707 bases of DNA from the NCBI RefSeq assembly GCF_003334335.1, contig NZ_QOWQ01000154.1, one strand, 5' to 3'. This stretch comes from Escherichia coli. Its GTDB lineage: Bacteria > Pseudomonadota > Gammaproteobacteria > Enterobacterales > Enterobacteriaceae. The notes under the pieces are model-generated. The model did not search any database. It saw only the letters and a list, made by a program, of their open reading frames with translations, and was not told the origin of the DNA. A program made the translations under genes and the position numbers. Shown here in pieces: positions 1 to 707 of the stretch (positions are counted from its first letter, which is position 1; every line of letters starts with the position of its first letter).

Positions 1-707
1 CAGCAGATGACGGTGAACTACCATATCCGCGGTCGCATCATCCAGGTGCCGTCAAACTATGACCCGGAAAAACGCACGTACAGTGGTATCTGGGACGGCA
101 GTCTGAAACCGGCATACAGCAACAACCCGGCCTGGTGTCTGTGGGACATGCTGACTCACCCGCGCTACGGCATGGGAAAACGTCTGGGGGCGGCGGATGT
201 GGACAAGTGGGCGCTGTATGCCATCGGGCAGTACTGCGACCAGACGGTCCCGGATGGTTTCGGGGGCACAGAGCCGCGGATGACCTTTAATGCGTACCTG
301 GCACAACAGCGTAAGGCGTGGGACGTTCTCAGTGATTTCTGCTCGGCGATGCGCTGTATGCCGGTATGGAACGGCCAGACGCTGACGTTCGTTCAGGACC
401 GCACGTCGGATGTGGTGTGGCCGTACACCAACAGCGATGTGGTGGTGGATGATAACGGCGTGGGGTTCCGCTACAGCTTCAGTGCCCTGAAGGACCGGCA
501 CACGGCGGTGGAGGTGAATTACACCGACCCGCAGAACGGCTGGCAGACCTCCACGGAACTGGTGGAAGACCCGGAAGCCATACTGCGCTACGGACGCAAC
601 CTGCTGAAGATGGACGCGTTCGGCTGTACCAGCCGCGGTCAGGCCCACCGTGCCGGGCTGTGGGTGATAAAGACCGAACTGCTGGAAACGCAGACGGTGG
701 ATTTCAC
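1..707 (+). CDS. J: Internal fragment (5' and 3' partial) of a lambdoid phage tail tip attachment / host specificity protein J; central region of a roughly 1100-aa protein, not the C-terminal receptor-binding end
   Basis: Seen in sequence: frame 1 is open across the full window (235 codons, no TAA/TAG/TGA) and continues past both edges. The translation contains conserved blocks I recognise from lambda gpJ-family proteins: 'YSGIWDG..KPAYSNN.AWCLWDMLTHPRYGMGKRLGAADVDKWALY.IGQYCDQ.VPDGFGGTEPR', 'QRKAWDVLSDFCSAMRCMPVWNGQTLTFVQDR', 'FRYSFSALKDRH.AVEVN' and 'KMDAFGCTSRGQAHRAGLW.IKTELLETQTVDF'. Composition is GC-rich (about 53-57% in the two 60-base lines I counted). Established knowledge: lambda J encodes the central tail fibre / tip attachment protein. 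The family assignment is from memory, not a database search. Confidence 0.9.
85..177 (+). other. Conserved motif block 'GIWDGSLKPAYSNNPAWCLWDMLTHPRYGMG' within the J CDS; consistent with the conserved phage tail protein domain (Pfam Phage-tail_3-like) found in gpJ-type proteins
   Basis: Seen in sequence: codons 29-59 of frame 1 encode this Trp/aromatic-rich block. Established knowledge / recollection: a near-identical block occurs in lambda gpJ and its homologues. The domain-family name is recalled, not computed, and the boundaries are approximate. Confidence 0.55.

Follow-up and report, generated by a model that had tools for sequence, protein, structure and literature searches.

The window, by which we mean the whole 707-base stretch of DNA analysed here, almost certainly comes from the interior of the gene that encodes tail-tip protein J in a lambda-like siphophage or prophage, whose host is Escherichia coli or a close relative. 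It corresponds to the hub core of J, and its product would, by homology with lambda, form part of the structural gate of the tail tip. The features of the window considered here are as follows.

1 to 707, plus strand: interior of a gene for a lambda-type tail-tip (central tail fibre) protein J, covering codons 230-464 and two further bases, in frame +1.
304 to 705, plus strand: part of a Phage-tail_3 (PF13550) domain, cut by the window end; hub-domain core (Pfam E 1.4e-29).
403 to 405, plus strand: codon ACG (Thr) for J residue 364, a rare natural allele in which base 403 is A.

Frame +1 is open through all of its 235 codons, against 1 to 11 stops in each of the other frames, and the GC content of its first, second and third codon positions (0.585, 0.445 and 0.787, respectively) follows the pattern of a genuine coding frame in GC-rich DNA. 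The first-pass annotation had placed the window wholly within a lambdoid gpJ gene in this frame, and had proposed comparing the translation with known protein families; the open frame and the matches that such a comparison yields both bear it out. All 235 residues of the translation align with profile positions 230-464 of 1163 in the NCBIfam model NF049904 (lambda_TipJ, 'phage attachment tail tip protein J') at an E-value of 3.5e-169 and 564.6 bits, the curated cut-off of 1950 bits being set for the whole protein and beyond the reach of a 235-residue fragment. Two full-length J proteins whose genes each lie one base from the window, those of metagenome contig L013 and of phage PhiR5_1, score 2116 and 2312 bits against the same model, and both exceed that cut-off. 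The translation also matches PHROG 31 ('central tail fiber J') at 9.3e-154, again across the full window, and, among solved structures, the lambda 'Tip attachment protein J' chains 8iyk_J and 9e7m, with which it aligns free of gaps over residues 230-464 (E ~1e-137). Within it, residues 102-235 correspond to model positions 2-131 of 164 in Pfam PF13550, at the E-value given above. These values lie far beyond chance, and nothing contradicts the identification as gpJ.

An annotated J gene encloses the match in all four of the nearest annotated records examined (PhiR5_1, the prophage of E. coli DETEC-S792, a further relative designated L003, and the prophage of E. coli JNEC-KY204). In the first three, whose J genes have 1157 or 1176 codons, the window starts with the first base of codon 230 (phase 0), such that J continues for approximately 690 nt upstream and 2.1 kb downstream. 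As the matches to J run from end to end of the window, and the annotated gene extends to both sides of it in these relatives, the window is wholly internal to J, and neither the start nor the stop codon of the gene falls within the 707 bases. It is, in this respect, an ordinary fragment of an already known gene, of a known kind.

A megablast search of the window, run on a set of 50,697 phage records and a second set of 5,426 complete E. coli genomes, returned similar sequence in 251 phage records, from Escherichia lambdoid phages that include many Stx1a- and Stx2a-converting phages, and in 4,446 of the 5,426 genomes, where the median number of sites per genome is two and the maximum 14, nearly all of them chromosomal. 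A single mismatch (99.9% nucleotide identity) separates the window from the J gene of PhiR5_1, for which E. coli C is the recorded host; metagenome contig L013 is also one mismatch away, at a position other than base 403. The prophages of E. coli DETEC-S792 and NCTC9112 carry two mismatches each, and the Stx-converting phages are 97.7-98% identical to the window. More broadly, J genes of the PhiR5_1/PhiR12 series, ASU11, CP-1639, the Stx1a- and Stx2a-converting phages, and the DETEC-S792, NCTC9112 and O104:H4 prophages share 97.7-99.9% nucleotide identity with the window over all 707 bases. No record identical to the window was found among the 50,697 phage records, the 5,426 complete E. coli genomes, IMG/VR or the metagenome contigs, the best match in each case having at least the one mismatch noted above. 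On the PhiR5_1 and PhiR12 phages, the literature consulted contained no relevant publication.

Lambda provides the reference for the function of this region (J at 15505-18903 of NC_001416; protein NP_040600; PDB 8IYK, 8XCG and 9E7M). Aligned with residues 230-464 of lambda gpJ, the window runs colinear throughout and needs no gap; identity is 82% for amino acids and 81% for nucleotides, and the Pfam domain Phage-tail_3 is common to both. The 137 nucleotide differences between the two are distributed as 31, 22 and 84 over the first, second and third codon positions, and dN/dS, estimated by the Nei-Gojobori method, is 0.14; together these values indicate that the frame has evolved as a protein under purifying selection. 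At the protein level there are 42 amino-acid changes, clustered at window residues 135-155 and 168-202. The first of these clusters is the most variable stretch, accounting for 13 of the 42, and at J residue 364 the window has threonine where lambda has proline. Lambda J is also the shorter protein, at 1132 residues compared with 1157-1176 in the nearest full-length relatives. Homologues from further afield cover the same region, including the F2-pyocin tail fibre (PDB 25VF; E 1.8e-69), which is much more distant and belongs to a tailocin, and the J-like tail tip proteins 9L9P and 23GD (E 7e-65 and 6e-42, respectively), which are likewise distant and come from other phages outside the E. coli lambdoid group. 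Proteins with four hub domains, namely the T5 baseplate hub pb3, T4 gp27, and their counterparts in 80alpha, the type VI secretion protein VgrG and RcGTA gp15, share the HDII/HDIII/HDIV fold (PMC10721106); their likeness to the window region is drawn from the literature and not from a sequence match. Unlike the T5 pb3-type proteins, the hub of lambda-type phages is divided between gpL, which supplies HDI, and gpJ.

The position of the window within J can be bracketed by published anchor residues of lambda gpJ, for which the last strand of the HDII insertion (beta13) is placed at 216-223, the HDIV strand beta24 at 477-482, and a beta-sandwich insertion at 483-569 (PMC10721106). Residues 230-464 fall between the first two of these anchors, which assigns them to the hub core, comprising HDII, HDIII and the first part of HDIV, with boundaries that are approximate. 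Along the chain, the hub domains are followed by two FNIII domains, an alpha-helical shaft, a beta-prism fibre and the C-terminal receptor-binding domain (PMC11101478). The Pfam domains recognised in the full-length J of contig L013 are listed below by residue.

86-207: FNIII-A_GpJ.
331-492: Phage-tail_3.
609-712: Ig_J.
714-816: Ig_J_second.
871-998: Phage_Tail_Tip.

Lambda gpJ has been solved by cryo-EM in closed and open states; the J trimer shuts the tail tip together with gpL and gpI, and binds the outer-membrane receptor (PMC10721106; PMC11101478). By homology, three J and three gpL chains of the phage from which the window derives would build a closed conical tip below the gpM ring, and a gpI plug would thread the gaps between the J hub domains. 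Binding of the C-terminal domain, which lies outside the window, to an outer-membrane receptor may then pass a twist up the fibre, upon which the FNIII strings would dissociate and the hub domains HDII-HDIII turn outward as rigid bodies, so opening the tube to approximately 3 nm for the exit of DNA (PMC10721106; PMC11101478). By this analogy, the window most likely encodes part of a structural gate or scaffold, and not the receptor sensor.

The sole oddity of the window is the threonine codon at residue 364. Base 403 is C, specifying proline, in lambda, in the three closest annotated relatives, and in all of the top annotated matches that were examined, and the F2-pyocin fibre (25vf) and 9l9p likewise have proline at the aligned position. 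Using a 67-base query around A403 for the E. coli genomes, and exact 40-mer scans for IMG/VR and the metagenome contigs, we found the threonine allele in one of the 1,822 complete genomes that match the 67-base segment (JNEC-KY204, in a prophage adjoining prfC), in two IMG/VR contigs and in six metagenome contigs. JNEC-KY204 and these eight uncultured contigs differ from the window by one to eight bases elsewhere, and in both JNEC-KY204 and L013 the allele sits within an intact J reading frame of 1176 residues. Thr364 recurs in at least nine independent assemblies, and the J genes of JNEC-KY204 and L013 that carry it are intact; it is not a sequencing error but a natural variant that is tolerated. 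The residue sits just before the variable stretch at window residues 135-155, and its effect is probably small.

Whether the source of the window is a virion genome or a prophage is a matter on which its relatives are instructive, and from them a phage tail cluster would be expected to surround it. In lambda the gene order is H-M-L-K-I-J-lom-stf (orf-401/orf-314)-tfa (orf-194), in agreement with the first-pass annotation, which had given H-M-L-K-I-J followed by lom, stf and tfa and had predicted this layout around the J gene of the window. The same arrangement, H-M-L-K-I-J-(lom)-stf-tfa, flanks every near-identical copy examined, whether in the isolated phage PhiR5_1, in the four prophages on E. 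coli chromosomes or in a metagenome contig. The predicted layout is present in all of the relatives designated below (L001, which is PhiR5_1; L002, from DETEC-S792; L003; L007, from JNEC-KY204; and L013, in which H-M-L-K-I-J-stf-tfa includes a J of 1176 intact codons). In these clusters H is the tape measure and K is annotated as a C40 peptidase, and a lom gene after J is confined to PhiR5_1 and lambda, with none in L002, L003, L007 and L013. Head genes (capsid, portal, FI/FII) lie upstream of the tail cluster in all close relatives, and in the chromosomal copies the bacterial genes btsSR, hya and prfC are found a few kilobases downstream. The tape-measure gene of PhiR5_1 (L001 4145-6717) is annotated as two adjacent coding sequences, 4145-6478 and 6478-6717, in contrast to the single gene H of lambda and of the E. 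coli prophage relatives; this division could reflect a frameshift, a sequencing error or a split in the annotation.

The suggestion that accessory or cargo genes would be found near J also holds among the relatives, some of which have lom and some a porin gene of the OmpC type that separates M from L; all have a gene for a YadA-like trimeric-autotransporter adhesin downstream of stf and tfa. The adhesin genes occupy the following coordinates.

L001 (PhiR5_1), 16570-17643: YadA-like adhesin gene.
L002 (DETEC-S792), 17880-19190: YadA-like adhesin gene.
L003, 17476-18933: YadA-like adhesin gene.
L007 (JNEC-KY204), 19572-20639: YadA-like adhesin gene.
L013 (metagenome contig), 9849-11249: YadA-like adhesin gene.

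In L001, L002 and L007 the adhesin gene is followed by a DinI-like gene, near the end of the prophage. The adhesin ORF of L013 matches NF033478 with an E-value of 9e-19, a score that is far under the curated cut-off. Also in L013, the side tail fibre ORF that follows J (6945-8453) contains collagen-like Gly-X-Y repeats, and matches models of Scl and Lcl collagen-like adhesins at E-values between 1e-31 and 5e-42, all of which are below the cut-offs of those models.

The place of the porin gene within the tail-tip operon of the DETEC-S792 prophage is as follows.

L002, 7581-8744: full-length OmpC-type porin gene between M and L, upstream of J at 11314-14844 (NCBIfam PRK10554).

Its product scores 496.7 bits against the OmpC model PRK10554, above the cut-off of 484. 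The junction between M and the porin gene was detected in 92 of the 5,426 complete E. coli genomes, and in DETEC-S792, EC2 and SW071611 it lies approximately 4-5 kb upstream of a J copy that is at least 99.3% identical to the window. At megablast sensitivity, the M-porin-L arrangement was found in none of the deposited phage genomes, in which the only matches were distant ones to a P7 nmpC-type porin. The porin gene may be a moron that serves in lysogenic conversion or receptor masking. A more ambitious reading holds both that Thr364 alters the stability of the tail-tip gate or the threshold at which it is triggered and, separately, that the source of the window is a porin-bearing prophage in which the porin acts in lysogenic conversion or superinfection exclusion; taken jointly, we regard these proposals as quite improbable.

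Among other origins for the window, a decayed or cryptic prophage, in which gpJ is a relic and J or the tail cluster no longer functions, deserves the most consideration. Many E. coli prophages are defective, and the multiplicity of similar copies per genome (median two, up to 14) would accord with such an origin. Decay is also visible beside intact J genes, as the stf gene of the JNEC-KY204 prophage (L007 16660-17535) survives as two pseudogene fragments, and a frameshift is annotated in the portal gene of the DETEC-S792 prophage (L002 1-781). The window itself, however, bears no sign of decay, with neither a stop nor a frameshift in its 235 codons; a single base separates it from the J gene of PhiR5_1, a phage whose deposited record names a propagation host; and J is intact, at 1157-1176 residues, in all five relatives examined (L001, L002, L003, L007 and L013). 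On balance, we consider a relic unlikely. Far less credible is an origin in a tail-like machine that is not a phage, for instance a gene transfer agent or a tailocin of the F type (pyocin), even though the tail fibre of F2-pyocin (25vf) aligns with the window at an E-value of 1.8e-69 and RcGTA gp15 shares hub domains with this region (PMC10721106). Identity to E. coli lambdoid phages is far higher, at 99.9% of nucleotides for PhiR5_1 and 97.7-98% for the Stx-converting phages, and the close relatives all have capsid, portal and FI/FII head genes upstream, so that we give this origin almost no weight.

It could also be asked whether the window contains a gene other than J, for which the sole candidate is a minus-strand ORF of 198 amino acids at 52-648, the only long ORF besides frame +1. 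The homologous antisense frame of lambda is interrupted by a stop codon, the predicted product has no PHROG match even at E-values up to 1, and no promoter-like site was found in the window; moreover, a gene whose third codon positions are 79% GC would be expected to have long ORFs on its antisense strand. A real overlapping gene here is accordingly improbable in the extreme, and we rejected the ORF as a shadow of J on the grounds of the stop in the lambda frame and the lack of a family match. No second gene was found in the window, nor any terminator-like site, nor any Rfam match at E-values up to 1, and its repeats are limited to two 12-nt direct repeats of two copies each and an imperfect inverted pair of 24 nt, all of which appear fortuitous. 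An internal segment of a lambda-like J gene remains the reading that we favour.

For the biology of these phages, the placement of the window within J bears directly on what may be read from it. The receptor-binding domain is encoded approximately 500 codons downstream, and the names 'host specificity' and 'attachment' protein describe the C-terminal part of J, outside the window. In a full-length alignment of the J proteins of lambda and the five relatives, the close relatives share 94-100% identity with one another over the first ~800 columns, and 57-85% with lambda. Over the last ~180 columns, in contrast, the J of PhiR5_1 (L001 9314-12787, 1157 aa) and that of the metagenome contig (L013 3230-6760, 1176 aa) are 22-26% identical to each other, and the nearest relatives are 17-36% identical to lambda, with 28-43% over columns 1001-1100. 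The low C-terminal identity to lambda suggests that a different receptor is likely in the nearest relatives, and the overall pattern is that of the well-known mosaicism by which J proteins exchange their C-terminal ends. As relatives that are each one base from the window carry unrelated receptor-binding ends, the window is uninformative on receptor or host range, and a conserved hub segment such as this should be treated with caution and not used to infer either. In itself the segment matters little, given that gpJ is among the best-studied of phage proteins and that some four fifths of complete E. coli genomes contain similar sequence. Its use is as a marker, its presence indicating a source that consists of or includes a lambda-like phage tail cluster.
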